Positions 12,567-46,919 of a DNA stretch of 64,000 nt are shown piece by piece. The stretch lies in the NCBI RefSeq assembly GCF_053078305.1, contig NZ_CP166879.1; one strand, written 5' to 3'. The position numbers and the translations under genes are program-made. How positions within the stretch are numbered: the first letter of the stretch is position 1; every line of letters starts with the position of its first letter. The notes beneath the pieces were generated by a model. It searched no databases and was not told where the DNA came from. It saw only the letters and a list, made by a program, of their open reading frames with translations.

Positions 12567-12617
12567 ACTTATCAATTTTTTCTGTAGGATCGCGGAACTA
12601 GTTTACGAGGGGTGGTG

Positions 12618-13010
12618 ATGATCTTTGTAAAACGCCTTCAGCAGGTGTTGCAGGAATTGAATATAAACCAGTCAGAGCTGGGAAGACGTCTTGGTGTAAA
12701 ACCCCAATCCGTGCAAGGTTGGTTGAAAGGCGTGATGCCAAGAATGGATAAACTGGAAAAATTAGCAGAGCTCTCACAACATCCCGTCCATTGGTTCTTT
12801 ATGGAAGAAGAAACTCTCGGCGATAAAATGGCTGTATCCAGTAATGACAACCAACCGCAACTTACAGAACAACAACGAAAAATCATATCGCTTTTAGATG
12901 AGTTACCTCAAAGCGACGCAGAGCAGATCATTCGTGATATGGAGCAAAAACGCGATTTCTATAAACGGAAACTTGAAGAGTTACTGCGGCAGAAAAACAA
13001 AACTGCCTGA
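12618..13010 (+). CDS. cI-like repressor (RacR-like, HTH only, no peptidase domain)
   Basis: 130-aa product from ATG 12618 (track ORF begins at GTG 12612); XRE HTH NQSELGRRLGVKPQSVQGW; RBS GAGGGG upstream. Confidence 0.6.
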   Translation: MIFVKRLQQVLQELNINQSELGRRLGVKPQSVQGWLKGVMPRMDKLEKLAELSQHPVHWFFMEEETLGDKMAVSSNDNQPQLTEQQRKIISLLDELPQSDAEQIIRDMEQKRDFYKRKLEELLRQKNKTA

Positions 13011-13056: not shown

Positions 13057-13416
13057 TTATAATCCAACCAGGCTTTCCAGGGGGATACCAAATTGATTAT
13101 GAAGACGGCGAATCATTGGTAACGTAAGGCTTCTGGTACCATTCAACACCTCATAAACCCGATTTTTTTTCCCAATTGCGGGTTCCAAATCTTTCACAGT
13201 CAGCCCCTGCTGTTCCATGCGAAATCTTATAGCTTCAATTGGGGATGGTGGCTCAATGGGATAATGTTTTTTTTCATATTCCTCTATTAGCAAACACATC
13301 ACCTCAAAAAAATCCCCCTCAGGCGTGTCAATTTCGGGCTCATTGTCGAACATGGGTTCAACAGCACGCAACGCGGCTTCATAATCTTGCTCTGTACGAA
13401 TAGGTTTGATGTTCAT
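13057..13416 (-). CDS. higA: HigA-family antitoxin (C-terminal HTH)
   Basis: 119-aa ORF; C-terminal HTH LTLPMIRRLHNQFGIPLESLV resembles K-12 HigA; directly follows the toxin gene (toxin-first order typical of hig loci). Confidence 0.8.
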   Translation of the reverse strand: MNIKPIRTEQDYEAALRAVEPMFDNEPEIDTPEGDFFEVMCLLIEEYEKKHYPIEPPSPIEAIRFRMEQQGLTVKDLEPAIGKKNRVYEVLNGTRSLTLPMIRRLHNQFGIPLESLVGL

Positions 13417-13418
13417 GC

Positions 13419-13721
13419 TTACTCCAGTTCGATGGTATCAGCATCAATAGCATCGTATTCCTTGTGGTTTCCGATGAATTTAACAAATACCCATCCTCGC
13501 TGATACGCAATTGCAACAATTAAACGGTAATGATTACCTTTTATGTTGAATACCACGCGCCGGTTTTTCAATATACTGGCCGTTCGGTATTGTGCCTTAA
13601 TGTCTGCTGGGCTTTTCCAGTCAGCTTTTGCCGCCTCATCCACCCATGCCCTTAGCGGTTGTTCTGCATCAGGATTCTCCGCCCAAAAATCCCTGAGTGT
13701 TTTAACTGAGATAATCTTCAT
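13419..13721 (-). CDS. higB: HigB-family toxin (RelE/ParE superfamily mRNA interferase)
   Basis: 100 aa from ATG 13721 (track ORF extends to TTG 13766); C-terminal FIGNHKEYD motif as in K-12 HigB; 2-nt gap to higA. Confidence 0.75.
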   Translation of the reverse strand: MKIISVKTLRDFWAENPDAEQPLRAWVDEAAKADWKSPADIKAQYRTASILKNRRVVFNIKGNHYRLIVAIAYQRGWVFVKFIGNHKEYDAIDADTIELE

Positions 13722-13764
13722 AACTGTATAGTAGTCCCATTTTGGGACTGATGCAACAGCTCGC

Positions 13765-13819
13765 AATTACAAATTTAATAATAAACATGTTGACCAGTTA
13801 AATTTTAATTTGTAAATTG
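13765..13819. promoter_or_regulatory. Putative oL operator region, overlapping the presumed higBA promoter
   Basis: AATTACAAATTTAA ... TTAATTTGTAAATT inverted arms, same core as the oR motif. Confidence 0.35.
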
Positions 13820-13995
13820 TATCCATAAACCCACCCCGCCCCACAGAACGCAGGGCAATACTTCGAGTTACCCGGCAGTGGTCAGGGGTTAAGTAGCCAG
13901 CCTGAGGCGTATGAACATGACGGCGGGGATTACGTTTAACTATGCAGCAGGTTTTTTGTTCCGCTACCCCGGCGTTAAGGGGAAATGAGGTCAAC

Positions 13996-14148
13996 ATGGA
14001 TACGCTCAATCTTGGCAACAACGAATCTCTGGTATGCGGTGTGTTCCCTAACCAGGACGGCACGTTTACCGCGATGACGTATACCAAAAGTAAAAAGTTT
14101 AAAACCGAAGCTGGCGCGCGTCGCTGGTTAGCCAGAAACACTAACTGA
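13996..14148 (+). CDS. YdaF-like small protein (DUF1391)
   Basis: 50-aa product MDTLNLGNNESLVCGVFPNQDGTFTAMTYTKSKKFKTE... closely matches Rac YdaF; RBS GAGG 6 nt upstream. Confidence 0.6.
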   Translation: MDTLNLGNNESLVCGVFPNQDGTFTAMTYTKSKKFKTEAGARRWLARNTN

Positions 14149-14960
14149 TTAGCACCAGTAAAAACAGGTTGCCACTGGTTAATTTACCCTGAAAAGTCAG
14201 GGCACAACAGAAAGCACACGGCGAAGGCGTCTTTTCCTTAGAAGGCTTGTCGTTAGATTTCTTCGACCGTGTGCTTCCGGTTGTGGCAATCCGCGAAATG
14301 GCGCGGCGGTAAATATGGCTGGGGGTTTTTATTTCTTTTCCCCTCATTGAGGACACCGGGTTGTCAGGTTGACCATATGCCTGAGTGACAACCCCGCCAC
14401 AACATCTCCATGTTTCAATGGCAGTGGTACCTTTGGCGGCATCAGTTTATTAGCTTTCTGATGTCCGCCCTTTTTAAAGTGAATTTTGTGATGCGGTGAA
14501 TGCGGCTAAGCGCACGCGGAACAGTTAAAACCGTAAAGTGGTCTTTTACGGGGCGTAACGGGCATACTTCTGTATTCCGGCGTTAATTGTTAACTGGTTA
14601 ACGTCACCTGGAGGCACCAGGCACTGCATCGACAAAGTTCACTTCGGTGATGAAAGGTAAGAGAAAATGTTGAATGTAGCTATTGAAAACCAGAACGGGT
14701 GGAATTATAGTGCACCTGCACCTCATAAAGCGGGTGCCGGGATTGCTACCCCGATGTTCATCATGGCGCATAACCGCGCTCAGGCGTTTTTTTTATGCGT
14801 AATGCACAGCCACATTCAGATTATGGTGGGGCGTGCAGGGCAGCCGCAAGGCTGGCCGGGTTCCATGATGACCGGTTGTAGCAACCCTGTGCGTCTCACC
14901 ACCCATGAGATTGCTACCTCCGGTGGTGAGTTAATGAAATTCATCATGGAGGCTGCCATC

Positions 14961-15518
14961 ATGGCTACTATCCCTGCCCTTTCTCACCCTGAAATTACTA
15001 TCGCCAATGGGCGTGCTGTTACATCCTCTTTAGCTGTTGCCGAGTATTTCCGGAAACCACACAAAGATGTACTGGCAAAAATTTCACGTCTAGACTGTTC
15101 AGCAGAATTCACTGAGCGAAATTTTTCGCCCAGTGAATATACCGACTCAACCGGGCGCAAACTCCCTATGTACCAAATCACCAAAAACGGCTTCGTTTTC
15201 CTGGTGATGGGCTTCACCGGCAAAAAAGCCGCTGCATTTAAAGAAGCCTACATCGCTGAGTTCGATCGCATGGAGAAAGAACTGCGCCAGAATAACGCCC
15301 CGTCTCCCGACAAAATGATTCACGGGGACGGACGTACCCTGGTTATCCGTCTCGACGAACACGGCAATATCAAATTCACTGAAACCGTTCCTGATGGTGC
15401 AATGGTCTGCACCCTGGATACCTTCCAGTTTTATCTGGAGAAACAAGGCTGGACTCTTGTAAACCGGAGCGCAATTAAAAATATGACTGTGGAGCAATTA
15501 CTAAAAATTCATTGTTGA
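14961..15518 (+). CDS. Rha-family phage regulatory protein
   Basis: Rha N-terminal signature ITIANGRAVTSSLAVAEYFRKPHKDVL; GGAGG RBS before ATG 14961; track ORF begins at 14667 but the 5' extension looks non-coding. Confidence 0.65.
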   Translation: MATIPALSHPEITIANGRAVTSSLAVAEYFRKPHKDVLAKISRLDCSAEFTERNFSPSEYTDSTGRKLPMYQITKNGFVFLVMGFTGKKAAAFKEAYIAEFDRMEKELRQNNAPSPDKMIHGDGRTLVIRLDEHGNIKFTETVPDGAMVCTLDTFQFYLEKQGWTLVNRSAIKNMTVEQLLKIHC

Positions 15519-15528
15519 GGACGCGATA

Positions 15529-15717
15529 ATGGAAACGTTATTACCAAACGTTAATACGTCTGAAGGGTGTTTTGATATTGGTATTCTGCTCAGTAACCGG
15601 GAGTTTACTGAAGATGCCATTAAGATGAGAAAATATGAGCCTTATCTTCTCAATGATAATTCCATACTCTCCAGAATTGCCCTTCTTAAACTTGGTATTT
15701 TCGGAGGGCAGCAGTGA
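15529..15717 (+). CDS. Hypothetical small protein (62 aa, cytosolic)
   Basis: RBS GAGGA upstream; start abuts Rha stop; stop overlaps next start (GTGA). Confidence 0.35.
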   Translation: METLLPNVNTSEGCFDIGILLSNREFTEDAIKMRKYEPYLLNDNSILSRIALLKLGIFGGQQ

Positions 15718-15902
15718 CTTCTGCATTTGCACTGGTGATGACGGTTTTTCTTATAACGGGTGAGCCACAGAATGTGATTACCGGAATTTATGCCAGTAAA
15801 GAATCATGCCTCCGTGCAAGAGACGAGCAAAAAATTTCTGGCGAATGCCTCCCGTTAAAAAAAGTATCGCTGTACCTGAATAACGAAATACCGGCTGGAT
15901 AA
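15714..15902 (+). CDS. Hypothetical small membrane/exported protein (62 aa)
   Basis: GTG start with GGAGGG RBS; hydrophobic N-terminal segment SAFALVMTVFLITG; two Cys. Confidence 0.35.
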   Translation: MTSAFALVMTVFLITGEPQNVITGIYASKESCLRARDEQKISGECLPLKKVSLYLNNEIPAG

Positions 15903-15994
15903 TCCACCAGCCATATTAACGCCATACCCGTTGATTAAGCATGCCAGCAATGGCAGGGGTTCGTACAACCTTAAAATAGTTATGAGGTTTATCC

Positions 15995-18433
15995 ATGAGC
16001 ACTGATAAAGAAGAATTTTCGCTATATTGCGAAGCAAAAAATGACAAGGTCAGAAAACGCCTTGGGATTAAAGGAGGTTTTTACTGGACTACAGCAAAAA
16101 AATTATCTGTTGCCATCTCACGGTGCGTTGTTGCAATGGACGAGGCAGGCTACGACGCTGATGATTTCAAAAAACCTGTCCGCGTCCATTTCCCCGTTGT
16201 GAATGACCTTCCACCGGAAGGCGTGTTTGATACCGAATTCTGCAACCGCTATGAAAAAGGCGGGGAAGATGGCATCACAATGATATTTATAGCGCCTTCC
16301 CCCTCAGTTCAGGACAAACCAGCCAGCACTGACAATACCAACGTCAATGGCGAAGACATGGCTGAGATTGAGGATAATATGCTCCTGCCGATTTCCGGTC
16401 AGGAACTGCCCATTCGCTGGCTTGCGCAACATGGCAGCGAAAAACCGGTAACGCACGTTTCACGGGAAGAACTTCAGGCATTACATATCGCACGAGCTGA
16501 AGAACTGCCGGCTGTTACTGCCCTGGCTATTTCCCACAACACAAAGCTGCTCGACCCGCTGGAGATTCGCGACCTTCATAAACTGGTACGCGACACAGAC
16601 AAAGTTTTCCCTAATCCCGTTAATTCCAGTCTGGGGTTAATGACTGCTTTTTTCGAAGCATACCTGGACGCTGACTATACCGATCGAGGTCTGCTGACAA
16701 AAGAGTGGATGAAAGGAAATCGTGTTTCTCGCATCACCCGCACGGCTTCCGGTGCAAATGCCGGTGGCGGAAATAAAACCGATCGTAATCCTGACTTAGT
16801 ACACACCCTCGATACTCTGGATGTGGAGGCTGCAGCAGCCACACTTCCGATGGATTTTAATATTTATGAAATACCCGTGAGCGTTTATCGTCGCGCAAAA
16901 GAAATCGTCCTGAAAAAAGAAAGTCCGTTCAGGGAATGGTCCGCAGCACTTCGCGCAACCCCTGGTATCCTGGACTATTCCCGCGCAGCTATTTTTGCAC
17001 TTATCCGGAGCGCCCACCCTGAGTTTTATCACTACCCGGGACGCCTTCAGGGGTATATCAATGCCAACCTGACAGAAACTGATCACGAGAATCCCACAGC
17101 TGAAACGCTCATGGCTGCCCGGCATACACCGGAAAAAGATATCCTGGAAGAAATTAACGGCGGACTGGCTGCTGAGTGCAAAACAGAAGAAGAAAAAAAT
17201 GATGAAGAAAACCCGCAACCATCTGGCGCAATGGCAGATGAACAGGCAACGGCTGAAACAATGGCAGCGGATACAGTTGAACATCATCAGGACCCGCAGC
17301 CGCTGGATGACAAGTCACAGGTAAAAGTTACTGCTGAAGAAGTAAATAAAATTATGGAGGCAGCAGACATCAGTCGACCAGATGCCGACAAATTGCTTGC
17401 CGCTTCTCGTGGTGAGTTTGTTGAAGGGATTAGCGACCCGAATGATTCGAAATGGGTTAAGGGGATTGAAACCTGCGATTCTGTGAACCAGAACCAGCAA
17501 GAAACGGAACAGAACGGTCAGAAAGCGGAACAAAACAGCCCAAATGCGTTACAAAACGAGCCAGAAACGAAACAACCTGAACCAGTAGTGCAACAGGAAG
17601 AGGAAAAAGTTTGTACCGCATGCAATCAGACTGGTGGTGGTAACTGCCCTGATTGTGGCGCAGTGATGGGGGACGCAACCTACCAGGAGACATTCAACGA
17701 AGAAAGCCAGGATGAAGCCCGGGAAAAAGATCCGGAGGAAATGGAAAGTGCCGGACTCCCGAACAAGGAGTGCACCGAAGGCGATCAACATGCCAATGGC
17801 AATAATGAAACAGGCGAGACAGCAAATCCCTTAATTAAGGTGAACGGTCATCGTGAAATCACATCCACCAGCAGGTTATGGCACCATCTGATGATTGACC
17901 TTGAAACAATGGGCAAAAATCCTGACGCACCAATAGCCTCAATAGGCGCTGTATTTTTCGATCCACAAACCGGAGAGCAGGGGCCTGAATTCAGCAAAAT
18001 AATTGATATGGGTACATGTGGCGGCACTGTAGACATAAGCACCATCGAATGGTGGCTTCAACGCTCTGGCGAAGCCCGTGCCGCCATTTTAGCTGATCGA
18101 ATACCGCTTGATGATGCGCTTTTACAATTACGGGAATTTATAGACGAAAACTCCGGTGAGTTTTTTGTTCAGGTCTGGGGAAATGGAGCCAACTTCGACA
18201 ACGTGATTTTACGCCGTTCATATGAACGGCAGGAGATCCCCTGCCCGTGGCGTTACACCAATGATCGTGATGTAAGAACGATTGTTGCCCTGGGGCTGGT
18301 GATGGATTTCGATGCTCGAAGTGTCATCACATTTGAGGGTGAACGCCATAATGCCCTGCACGATGCGCGTTACCAGGCAAAATACGTTTCAGCTATCTGG
18401 CAAAAACTGTTCCCGAATCAGGCTGATTTTTAA
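15995..18433 (+). CDS. Large protein with C-terminal DEDDh-type 3'-5' exonuclease domain, central acidic low-complexity region and zinc-ribbon-like Cys cluster
   Basis: 812-aa ORF with RBS; Exo I MIDLETMG, Exo [14 protein letters not shown], Exo [16 protein letters not shown]; [16 protein letters not shown]; sits between Rha module and xis/int. Confidence 0.6.
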
Positions 18434-45798: not shown

Positions 45799-46809
45799 TT
45801 AGATATGGGTAACGATTTCTTTAATCAGCGGCGGACCTTTAAAAATAAAACCAGAATAAATTTGCACCAGTGAGGCACCCGCAGCAATCTTTTCACGCGC
45901 AGCGATAACCGAGTCGATGCCGCCAACACCGATGATCGGTAAGCGACCGTTTAATTCCAGTGACAAGCGGCGAATAATTTCGGTGCTTTTTAACTGAAGC
46001 GGACGACCACTTAAGCCACCGGTTTGATCGCAATTTTTCATTCCCTGAACCAGAGAACGATCGAGTGTGGTATTGGTGGCAATCACGCCATCAATATTAT
46101 GGCGAACTAAACTATCGGCAACCTGGATCAATTCTTCTTCAGAAAGATCCGGCGCGATCTTCACTGCGATCGGCACATATTTATGGTGCATCGCTTGCAA
46201 ATCATTTTGTTTATTTTTAATCGCAGTTAAGAGATCATCCAGCGCTTCACCATATTGCAGTGTGCGTAATCCTGGGGTATTTGGCGATGAAATATTGATG
46301 GCGATATATCCCGCATAGGCATAGATTTTTTCCATACAAATCAGATAGTCATCTTTGCCCTGCTCTACTGGCGTATCTTTATTTTTGCCGATGTTAATAC
46401 CCAGGACGCCGTCATAATGGGCTTTTTTTACGTTCTCTACGAGGTTATCAACGCCAAGATTATTAAAGCCCATACGGTTGATCAAACCTTCGGCATCTAC
46501 CAGACGAAAGAGACGCGGCTTGTCATTACCTGGCTGTGGACGTGGCGTGACGGTACCGATCTCGATCGATCCAAATCCCATCGCGCCTAACGCGTCAATG
46601 CACTCCCCGTCTTTATCAAGACCGGCTGCCAGACCAAGCGGATTTTTAAACGTCAGGCCCATGCAGTTAACAGGTTTCGCAGGCACTTTCTGCCGCACCA
46701 GTGCTTCAAACGGTGTTCCGGTAATGCGGCGTAATTGCTGAAAAGTAAACTCATGAGCGCGCTCTGGATCGAGCTGGAAAAGGGCTTTACGAACGAAGGG
46801 GTAGTACAT
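45799..46809 (-). CDS. pyrD: Dihydroorotate dehydrogenase (quinone)
   Basis: 336-aa product [23 protein letters not shown]... Confidence 0.97.
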
Positions 46810-46919
46810 GAACTCTCCTGGATTCCCGGTGTGCAAACCGGGGGCGTATTATGTGCGAGTTCGGACCAAAAGGGAATTGACCTGCGGCAAAAAAAACGCA
46901 AACGTTTTCCGAACCTGTT

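Follow-up and report, generated by a model that had tools for sequence, protein, structure and literature searches.

The three-gene stretch described here lies within a window of 64,000 nucleotides, by which we mean the whole stretch of DNA that was analysed, and all features given below with coordinates are on the + strand. It begins with rha (14961..15518; ATG at 14961, TGA at 15516-15518), which from this start encodes a 185-aa Rha-family, antirepressor-type regulator. Two ORFs of 62 aa each follow: ORF1 (15529..15717; ATG at 15529, TGA at 15715-15717), the predicted gene of the cell-division inhibitor DicB, and ORF2 (15714..15902; GTG at 15714, TAA at 15900-15902), a ydfD-like gene for a putative small lysis protein of the DUF1482 family. 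The ORF listing and the sequence bore out the positions assigned to all three genes in the preliminary description, as well as the GTGA shared by the ORF1 stop and the ORF2 start (15714-15717). The rha stop had been said to abut ORF1; the two are indeed close, but a gap of 10 nt (15519-15528) separates them, and the GAGGA Shine-Dalgarno sequence of dicB (15517-15521) overlaps the rha stop codon.

The product of ORF1 matched Pfam PF05358 over residues 1-62 of 62 (E 5.6e-36; 122.5 bits against a cut-off of 27), passed the cut-off of 100 for NCBIfam NF049927 with 109.2 bits, and matched PHROG family 1251 at full length. In BLASTP it was 60% identical to DicB of E. coli K-12 over the full length (E 1e-23), and 'dicB' is also the RefSeq label at the same position in near-identical loci; a PDB sequence search gave no match for DicB. 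The view that this protein is cytosolic held, as its GRAVY of -0.05 and the lack of a hydrophobic segment fit a soluble protein. These matches identify ORF1 as DicB, a predicted division inhibitor of the kil type. The K-12 protein binds MinC, acts with ZipA and inhibits division, and it excludes lambda-like phages by blocking their ManYZ-dependent entry (PMC6832061). By homology, the DicB encoded here would bind MinC and deliver it to the septal ring via ZipA, with dissolution of FtsZ rings and filamentation as the outcome, and the same DicB-MinC interaction would block the ManYZ-dependent DNA entry of lambda-like phages.

The ORF2 product matched Pfam PF07358 (YdfD/DUF1482) over residues 4-61 (E 6.6e-16; 58.4 bits, cut-off 25) and PHROG 1092 at full length (E 4.3e-33), and was 48% identical to K-12 YdfD over 62 aa (E 3e-22, BLASTP). 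PF07358 was present in all but 2 of the 104 YdfD homologues returned, those two being fragments. The NCBIfam search gave no model match for this protein and the PDB sequence search only a chance match (E 0.55); RefSeq calls ORF2 'DUF1482 family protein' in near-identical loci. The hydrophobic N-terminus noticed earlier was confirmed at residues 4-14, where the Kyte-Doolittle 11-residue maximum was 2.81 (3.17 in K-12), and a polar C-terminal domain follows it, which is the layout of YdfD. The 19-residue maximum was 1.39, compared with 2.00 in K-12; a canonical membrane helix would be longer, and insertion into the membrane is therefore uncertain. We assign ORF2, by its family matches, to the YdfD type of putative small lysis proteins. 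K-12 YdfD binds and inhibits IspG, according to a single study (PMC8835842). Both proteins differ from their tested K-12 counterparts, by 40% in DicB, mostly in the C-terminal half, and by 52% in YdfD, chiefly in the C-terminal half; the target specificities for MinC, ManYZ and IspG are therefore assumed here from the K-12 work.

In all 81 full loci dicB was found directly 5' of ydfD with an overlap of -4, and the K-12 genes share the 4-nt overlap in the form ATGA. The ydfD start codon was ATG in 68 of these loci and GTG in the remaining 13. Since the overlap has been kept throughout, translational coupling of dicB and ydfD is very probable, and the conserved stop/start overlap would tie the synthesis of YdfD to that of DicB. 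Lysis by K-12 YdfD is suppressed when DicB is co-expressed, in the account that PMC8835842 gives of Masuda et al. 2016, and the lysis protein would thus be produced alongside the protein that restrains it. In K-12 a transcript spans ydfABC-dicFB-ydfD (PMC10448788). Both small genes are under purifying selection, with pN/pS values of 0.27 for dicB and 0.40 for ydfD (18 distinct alleles) and dN/dS values relative to K-12 of 0.39 and 0.36, respectively; one of the 18 dicB alleles contains an internal stop. Full-length matches to curated families, low pN/pS and the invariable overlap place the two small ORFs beyond what chance would produce.

The gene order around the stretch was repressor, ydfA-like gene, DicF-like RNA, rha, dicB, ydfD, exonuclease, xis and int. 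A helix-turn-helix repressor gene (12612..13010; called by PGAP in the near-identical locus L083) heads the operon in the DicA position; its product is 22% identical to DicA over 125 aa (pairwise E 2e-7). The ydfA-like DUF1391 gene (13996..14148; also DUF1391 by PGAP in L083) is the first gene of the dicBF-type operon, and positions 13958-14139 have 88% nucleotide identity to K-12 ydfA. A diverged DicF-like small RNA (14422..14470) scored 36.4 bits with the Rfam DicF model in a local scan, which falls short of the gathering score (48; E 9.4e-6), within a segment (14184-14641) that aligns at 80% to the K-12 stretch holding dicF. Downstream, in the position of ydfE in Qin, an 812-aa exonuclease is encoded (15995..18433), with a RecE N-terminal region and a Rv2179c-like 3'-5' exonuclease domain (Pfam PF06630 and PF16473; PGAP label 'exonuclease'); its residues 1-614 matched NCBIfam PRK09709 with a score below the cut-off. 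In a search with PADLOC defence models Rha, DicB and YdfD remained unmatched, and the sole match was a weak DEDDh in this exonuclease. The exonuclease gene, like xis and int nearby, is intact. The methyltransferase gene is frameshifted in the near-identical prophage of strain FHI_NMBU_10.

With this context, we have little doubt that a lambdoid prophage is inserted here beside yccA and that the region forms the distal end of its early-left (dicBF-type) operon, with DicB, YdfD and a separate rha cassette. The dicBF operon of K-12 Qin (ydfABC-dicF-dicB-ydfD-ydfE) has the same gene order and the same 4-nt overlap, with flanks that are 80-88% identical at the nucleotide level. In both prophages ydfA-like and DicF-like elements precede the pair, an exonuclease gene and an integrase follow it, and dicB has a common 28-nt leader with its hairpin. 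DicB has 62 aa in both prophages, whereas YdfD has 62 aa here and 63 aa in K-12 and starts with GTG here and with ATG there. Further differences are the DicF score (36 bits here, 77 bits in K-12), the repressor, which is only 22% identical to DicA, a higBA-like pair inserted after it, and the intact exonuclease, xis and int genes downstream, in contrast to the defective Qin with its pseudogenised neighbours. In addition, a cassette of ~860 bp, isrK-C4-rha, lies here between the DicF-like RNA and dicB.

This cassette makes rha a separate module with its own promoter-like site, isrK, C4 RNA and C4 target sites; it is absent from the K-12 and PPompW prophages, and the same rha precedes kil or kilR in other prophages. 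The promoter-like site (14683..14711; TTGAAA-17-TATAGT, 10 of 12 consensus positions) ends 7 nt 5' of the isrK match, placed for transcription start at the isrK 5' end, and its -10 element is conserved in the alignment. The isrK-type small RNA (14718..14794) was found with Rfam RF01394 at 58.1 bits (gathering score 50). It also bears a hairpin followed by a U-run as a terminator, although a simple terminator scan did not report it and gave only weak terminator-like sites in the region. The C4 antisense RNA (14819..14906; Rfam RF01695, 77.9 bits, gathering score 45) contains the recognition loops b' (14863-14871) and a' (14878-14884). Motif search placed the corresponding target copies within isrK at 14742-14750 (a1) and 14758-14766 (b1); a second set in front of rha (14910..14952), located by motif search and a complementarity table, comprises a2 (14910-14918) and b2 (14941-14949), of which b2 overlaps the GGAGG Shine-Dalgarno sequence of rha (14948-14952).

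In five sequences, which have three types of a-site between them, the a' 7-mer is the exact complement of a1 as well as of a2, and the site covaries at all three places (a', a1 and a2) across the types GTAGCAA, GTCCTAA and TTTCCAC. For the b-sites, only the window (9 nt) and L003 (6 nt) showed exact complementarity at b1 as well as b2; pairing was imperfect in the other three sequences. RNAduplex was also tried on C4 against the leader and against isrK; it returned long non-specific duplexes, C4-isrK scoring no better than shuffles (75/500), and was replaced by the analysis of exact-complement motifs. Target sites placed over the rha ribosome-binding site would follow the logic of P1 immI and of Gifsy-1 isrK-orf45-anrP. 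Translation control by RNAs of this kind has been shown for P1, in work cited in PMC8546580, and for the isrK-anrP module of Gifsy-1 (PMC4825925); by analogy with these systems, the translation of rha may be controlled by RNA here.

The N-terminal Phage_pRha domain of Rha was recognised by Pfam PF09669 (E 9e-31; 106.7 bits, cut-off 29.9) and TIGR02681 (104.9 bits, cut-off 45.95), and the protein matched PHROG 995/821/518 together with antirepressor PHROGs. A tblastn search of the phage collection gave no match for its C-terminal domain, the native end of which was recovered from E. coli genomes instead. RefSeq/PGAP models rha as a 283-aa CDS from 14667, and this automatic extension runs over the promoter-like site and both small-RNA genes. 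In contrast, the start at 14961 is the one given in the annotated phages phi191 and PhiR12_3. Upstream of rha the reading frame was uninterrupted in each of 13 loci; it extends for ~100 codons here, whereas in phi191 and PhiR12_3 it has 71-77 codons and closes within the isrK region. These shorter frames, and the position of 14667 on the 5' side of the isrK promoter-like site, led us to reject it as the sole start. Translation may also begin further upstream than 14961 in the same frame, at 14802 or 14823, in the manner of orf45 of Gifsy-1.

The likeness to P1/P7 immI (c4-icd-ant) and Gifsy-1 isrK-orf45-anrP was seen in several features. In all of them a C4-family RNA lies 5' of an antirepressor-type gene, the a and b elements occur twice, once upstream in isrK and once over the ribosome-binding site further down, the specificity types show covariation (PMC4825925; PMC8546580), and an upstream reading frame continues across C4 into the gene of the antirepressor. 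The C4 module also shares its transcription unit with a division inhibitor in P1 (icd) and here (dicB). The protein has a Rha N-terminal domain here, and the likeness to P1 Ant and AnrP is drawn from module layout and RNA elements. Here the orf45-like frame runs on into rha as a fusion, whereas in Gifsy-1 orf45 ends in an AUGA overlap; an orf45-antirepressor fusion is recorded for S. dysenteriae in the Gifsy-1 paper (PMC4825925). The module in our window, in contrast to those of P1 and Gifsy-1, sits within a lambdoid early-left operon.

The cassette meets the dicB leader at ~15503, so the 3' codons and stop of rha fall within the hairpin that holds the dicB AUG. This leader hairpin (15508..15533; -8.2 kcal/mol fold) has the Shine-Dalgarno sequence in its loop and the AUG in its 3' arm, while its 5' arm takes in the 3' end of rha up to the second base of the stop codon; the same structure occurs in K-12 and PPompW, and the leader sequence was invariant in 84 sequences. 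The position of the rha end inside the hairpin may add some coupling between rha and dicB, with rha dispensable for dicB. According to the preliminary description, all three genes looked co-translated. This stands for dicB and ydfD with their constant overlap in 81 of 81 loci, but a conserved cassette of all three is not supported, rha preceding dicB in just 11 of the 82 classified dicB upstream regions; the full arrangement was present in at least 162 of 5,426 E. coli genomes.

One could nevertheless read rha-dicB-ydfD as one functional cassette, in which C4/IsrK-gated translation of Rha is needed to open the dicB hairpin, so that one switch would have three outputs (antirepressor, division block and lysis). 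The rha stop (15516-18) at the loop end of the 5' arm and the short 10-nt gap would suit such a switch, the 11 rha-dicB loci do not differ at the junction, and rha adjoins division inhibitors (kil, kilR) elsewhere too. Furthermore, the isrK terminator lies upstream, so that downstream expression would need read-through, as in Gifsy-1 (PMC4825925). We consider this reading unlikely, however, as identical leader and hairpin are present without rha in 71 of the 82 upstream regions, K-12 included, which indicates that dicB initiation is independent of rha. Moreover, the hairpin is weak, with its Shine-Dalgarno sequence in the loop, in kil contexts a spacer of 45-70 nt and a separate Shine-Dalgarno sequence stand between rha and kil, and the adjacency is most simply explained as a mosaic recombination joint at the rha 3' end. 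We are somewhat more doubtful still that the joint slaves DicB and YdfD to the C4/IsrK switch with PisrK as a second, repressor-independent promoter; if so, one small-RNA decision would lead to derepression, division arrest, superinfection exclusion and later lysis. A coupling of rha and dicB, if true, would be a modest new regulatory variant, in which an immI-type RNA switch is tied to host division control.

The small ORFs had been likened to kil-type or exclusion modules, without a family being recognised. The functional guess was right, ORF1 being DicB, a predicted division inhibitor whose K-12 form also blocks lambda-like phages (PMC6832061), and the kil-type parallel is seen in Rac-type prophages, which carry kilR-ydaE in the same slot behind the same rha. 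The families, on the other hand, do exist: PF05358/NF049927 and PF07358 were matched above their cut-offs. That the two form a new pair outside known families is thus barely conceivable, even though PADLOC gave no defence match, the region has no solved structure and PHROGs labels both families 'unknown function'. Against it are the full-length matches to Pfam DicB and DUF1482 and to the NCBIfam DicB model, the synteny and overlap shared with K-12 dicB-ydfD, the existing RefSeq annotation, and the 60% and 48% identity to K-12 proteins whose function has been studied by experiment; homology of this kind had been named beforehand as grounds for rejection, and their novelty fails on that account. 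Both dicB and ydfD are named and studied genes, which RefSeq labels in E. coli genomes with this arrangement. It is highly improbable as well that they are decaying remnants of a cryptic prophage from which functional protein is no longer made. The K-12 copy does lie within the defective Qin among pseudogenised neighbours, and both the dicB allele with an internal stop and the methyltransferase frameshift of FHI_NMBU_10 would fit such decay, but neither ORF is disrupted here, almost all of the 81 loci likewise have the two intact, with the low pN/pS given above, the translation-initiation leader is invariant, the exonuclease, xis and int neighbours are intact, and the K-12 orthologues are active on expression (PMC6832061, PMC8835842).

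For ORF2, a further explanation would be a membrane-inserted protein akin to a holin or pinholin, whose lytic effect would come from a permeabilised membrane and not from IspG inhibition. Its small size and hydrophobic N-terminal segment would allow this, the K-12 orthologue is lytic, and the IspG model is backed by one study (PMC8835842). We regard it as very unlikely, since there is a single hydrophobic run of ~13 residues, ydfD lies in the early-left operon, distant from any lysis cassette, and K-12 YdfD lysis, in the report of PMC8835842, needs cell division and is relieved by IspG over-expression, which is unlike a holin. A weaker variant of the doubtful reading with the C4/IsrK switch would be that the diverged C-terminal halves of these DicB and YdfD alleles recognise host targets other than those of the K-12 proteins.

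The gain is one of bookkeeping: the supposed unknown kil-like pair is identified as the DicB/YdfD toxin pair, and rha as part of an independent antirepressor cassette, putatively under RNA control, which shifts between prophage operons of the dicB and kil types. Rac-type kilR-ydaE and lambda kil occupy the common slot, after the immunity region and directly 5' of the recE-type exonuclease. In both the Rac-type and the dicB-type case a small division inhibitor is followed by a second small ORF touching it, although sequence similarity of KilR/YdaE to DicB/YdfD was absent from all searches made, and Kil-type proteins are annotated as acting on FtsZ whereas DicB works via MinC and ZipA (PMC6832061). 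In some E. coli prophages kilR-ydaE stands directly behind the same rha (80-82% nucleotide identity), with a spacer of 45 nt between rha and kil, in comparison to the 10 nt between rha and dicB here.

The six-frame ORF list and the sequence placed three reading frames on the plus strand: the Rha-domain frame (ATG 14961 to TGA 15516-15518), ORF1 of 62 codons (ATG 15529 to TGA 15715-15717) and ORF2, also of 62 codons (GTG 15714 to TAA 15900-15902), which overlaps ORF1 by the tetranucleotide GTGA. The N-terminus of ORF2 was hydrophobic at about residues 3-15, with an 11-residue Kyte-Doolittle maximum of 2.81; a membrane-spanning helix is not assured, because the 19-residue maximum was only 1.39. 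Hydropathy analysis revealed no hydrophobic segment in ORF1. ORF list, sequence and hydropathy were all in agreement with the preliminary description of rha followed by two overlapping 62-codon frames, the second with a hydrophobic N-terminus, and the observation as such is confirmed. The rha stop, described there as abutting the first small frame, in fact lies 10 nt from it, and a GAGGA Shine-Dalgarno sequence (15517-15521) overlaps the stop codon.

ORF1 matched Pfam DicB (PF05358) from end to end (E 5.6e-36), exceeded the cut-off of 100 of the NCBIfam DicB model (109.2 bits) and was 60% identical to E. coli K-12 DicB over all 62 residues. ORF2 matched Pfam DUF1482 (PF07358, E 6.6e-16) as well as PHROG 1092, and shared 48% identity, along its full length, with K-12 YdfD, a 'lysis protein' in the RefSeq annotation. 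In the K-12 Qin prophage (locus L002, dicB 4610-4798 and ydfD 4795-4986) the gene order and the 4-nt overlap are the same as in the window. PF07358 was present in all but two (fragments) of the 104 ORF2-related protein clusters, in which every organism named was Escherichia or Shigella. A megablast search of 5,426 complete E. coli genomes with window 14600-16100 found the full rha-dicB-ydfD arrangement in at least 162 genomes, labelled in RefSeq as 'Rha family phage regulatory protein | dicB | DUF1482 family protein | exonuclease', and parts of the region in 4,314. The earlier interpretation is thus partly supported: the pair, likened to kil-type or exclusion modules, is indeed one, DicB/YdfD being kil-type and exclusion-capable, but the statement that it matches no family does not hold, given its clear homology to a characterised phage protein pair. 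All essentials were already known and already annotated.

In K-12, DicB binds MinC and recruits it, via ZipA, to the septal ring, leading to dissolution of FtsZ rings there; DicB also depends on this MinC interaction to block ManYZ-dependent DNA entry of lambda-type phages, which gives about 100-fold resistance (PMC6832061). Expression of K-12 YdfD leads to cell lysis, which needs ongoing division, is prevented by co-expressed DicB or SulA, and is relieved by over-expression of IspG, to which YdfD binds; dicB and ydfD were noted to form one operon and to overlap partly (PMC8835842). A ydfABC-dicFB-ydfD transcript has been detected in K-12, the operon being repressed by DicA (PMC10448788).

A viral-contig scan gave 80 loci encoding ORF2 relatives. 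Together with locus L001 and the K-12 locus (n=82), dicB was located directly 5' of ydfD with a -4 overlap in 81, the sole exception being a locus without any upstream sequence. In the 81 sequences aligned to the pair without gaps (the window and the 80 loci), ydfD started with ATG in 68 and GTG in 13. With 18 distinct alleles per gene at the nucleotide level, pN/pS was 0.27 for dicB and 0.40 for ydfD, and dN/dS relative to K-12 was 0.39 and 0.36, respectively, at dS of about 0.9-1.4; these values show purifying selection on both genes as proteins, and the overlap itself is conserved. Translational coupling of dicB and ydfD is almost certain, and the conserved stop/start overlap would tie the output of the lysis protein to that of the division inhibitor which restrains lysis.

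Co-translation had been proposed for all three genes. The 28 nt 5' of the dicB ATG were invariant in 84 of 84 sequences, and the predicted fold of the dicB leader is a 10-bp hairpin (-8.2 kcal/mol) whose loop carries the Shine-Dalgarno sequence and whose 3' arm includes the AUG. The 5' arm is formed in the window by the final codons of rha together with most of its stop codon, so a ribosome finishing rha would open the hairpin, which makes rha-dicB coupling physically plausible and speaks for rha, dicB and ydfD as a functional trio. However, only 11 of the 82 dicB upstream regions carried rha; the other 71 were of the K-12 type with the identical leader, so coupling to rha is not required for dicB. 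A functional trio is therefore unlikely, and of the proposed co-translation the dicB-ydfD part stands, whereas rha-dicB-ydfD is not a conserved unit.

Against K-12, homology stopped at 14641 and restarted at 15504, with short imperfect repeats (ACAAAGTTCA and AAAAATTCA) flanking the break; the ~860 bp in between, which carry the promoter-like site, isrK, C4 and rha, thus form an additional module. In the PPompW prophages, DicF is followed directly by dicB-ydfD. Rac-type E. coli prophages had the same rha, 80-82% identical in nucleotides as far as window 15502, with a C-terminus of ...EQLLSIK where that in the window is ...EQLLKIHC; kil/kilR, ydaE and recE come next after a 45-nt gap (L087 1895-3010; L088 1890-3176). 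The isrK/C4/rha module likewise preceded kil in the Stx-type phages phi191 and PhiR12_3. Since rha precedes dicB-ydfD in some prophages and kil/kilR-ydaE in others, the two pairs look like alternative 'division inhibitor plus small partner' modules that occupy a single slot, with rha as an independently assorting neighbour. The sole mildly new aspect is that DicB and YdfD expression may be rewired by the immI-type rha cassette.

Directly upstream of rha and on its strand, Rfam identified isrK (14718-14794, 58.1 bits) and a C4 antisense RNA (14819-14906, 77.9 bits); isrK is preceded, at a distance of 7 nt, by a promoter-like site (TTGAAA-17-TATAGT). The C4 loops, CCATGATGA (14863-71) and GTAGCAA (14878-84), are exactly complementary to the isrK-internal motifs ATTGCTACC (14742) and TCATCATGG (14758), and also to motifs at 14910 and 14941 just 5' of rha, the latter reaching into GGAGG, the Shine-Dalgarno sequence ahead of ATG 14961. 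When the window was aligned with phi191, PhiR12_3, L003 and L006, the a-site covaried in isrK, C4 and the rha leader (GTAGCAA, GTCCTAA, TTTCCAC), and the b-sites differed too. The modules of differing specificity (window 14700-14975; L084, which is phi191, and L085, both 1241-1515; L003 and L006, both 1987-2262) comprise at least three or four specificity types, which resemble heteroimmune forms of an immI-type switch of lambdoid prophages. The same architecture is found in the immI operon of P1, where synthesis of Ant is repressed by c4 RNA (PMC8546580 and references therein), and in the Gifsy-1 isrK-orf45-anrP module. [quoted passage not shown] In phi191, an Rfam sRNA-Xcc1 match (L084 2282-2365, plus strand, 79.6 bits) was located between the rha-type gene and a second antirepressor gene.

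The RefSeq/PGAP model starts rha at 14667 (283 aa), 5' of the promoter-like site, and crosses isrK and C4; the conceptual translation of 14667-14960 matched Pfam Phage_ASH (E 1.1e-15). The in-frame open sequence 5' of rha in phi191 and PhiR12_3 measures 71-77 codons, versus about 100 in the window, and closes inside the isrK region; the annotators of these phages placed the gene start at the position corresponding to 14961. The additional N-terminal residues of the PGAP model are probably an artefact of annotation, and the choice of start has no bearing on the identity of the small ORFs. Nonetheless, the frame from a conserved ATG inside C4 (14823) to 14961 was open in all 13 related loci, across specificity types and with a 3-nt indel that keeps the frame, which is reminiscent of an orf45 fusion described for S. 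dysenteriae (PMC4825925).

The best-matching annotated genome carries a lambdoid prophage integrated beside yccA, with a DUF1391/ydfA-like gene 5' of rha, dicB and the DUF1482 gene. The helix-turn-helix repressor (12612-13010) was 22% identical to DicA. Between it and the ydfA-like gene lies a higBA-like pair (13057-13766, minus strand), a HigB-family toxin gene adjoining a helix-turn-helix gene in the HigA position; strain N51 has relBE at the equivalent position. A sensitive Rfam scan detected a diverged DicF (14422-14470, plus strand) whose 36.4 bits fall short of the gathering score of 48, in a stretch that aligns at 80% with the dicF region of K-12. Because this RNA differs from K-12 DicF in the sequence of its loop, it might have other targets. 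A hairpin, GGCTGG...CCAGCC (15895-15914, plus strand), spans the ydfD stop codon and is kept in PPompW-type loci and absent in K-12; it is not a classical terminator, because no U-run follows. An 812-aa exonuclease (15995-18433, plus strand) is encoded 3' of the DUF1482 gene, followed by excisionase, integrase and the chromosomal yccA, tusE and rlmI. The exonuclease joins the RecE (exonuclease VIII) N-terminal region to an Rv2179c-like DEDDh 3'-5' exonuclease domain, which replaces the nuclease domain of RecE at the C-terminus, and scored below the NCBIfam equivalog cut-off. We also noticed a partial, sub-threshold STnc100-like match (14491-14629, plus strand, 29 bits) between the DicF-like RNA and the rha cassette, and two full STnc100 copies at the start of the window (1-203 and 483-689, minus strand). 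Three tRNA genes and the sok antitoxin RNA in the prophage part, and the PyrD leader in the chromosomal part, were all on the minus strand (1814-2062, 6841-7015 and 46804-46877).
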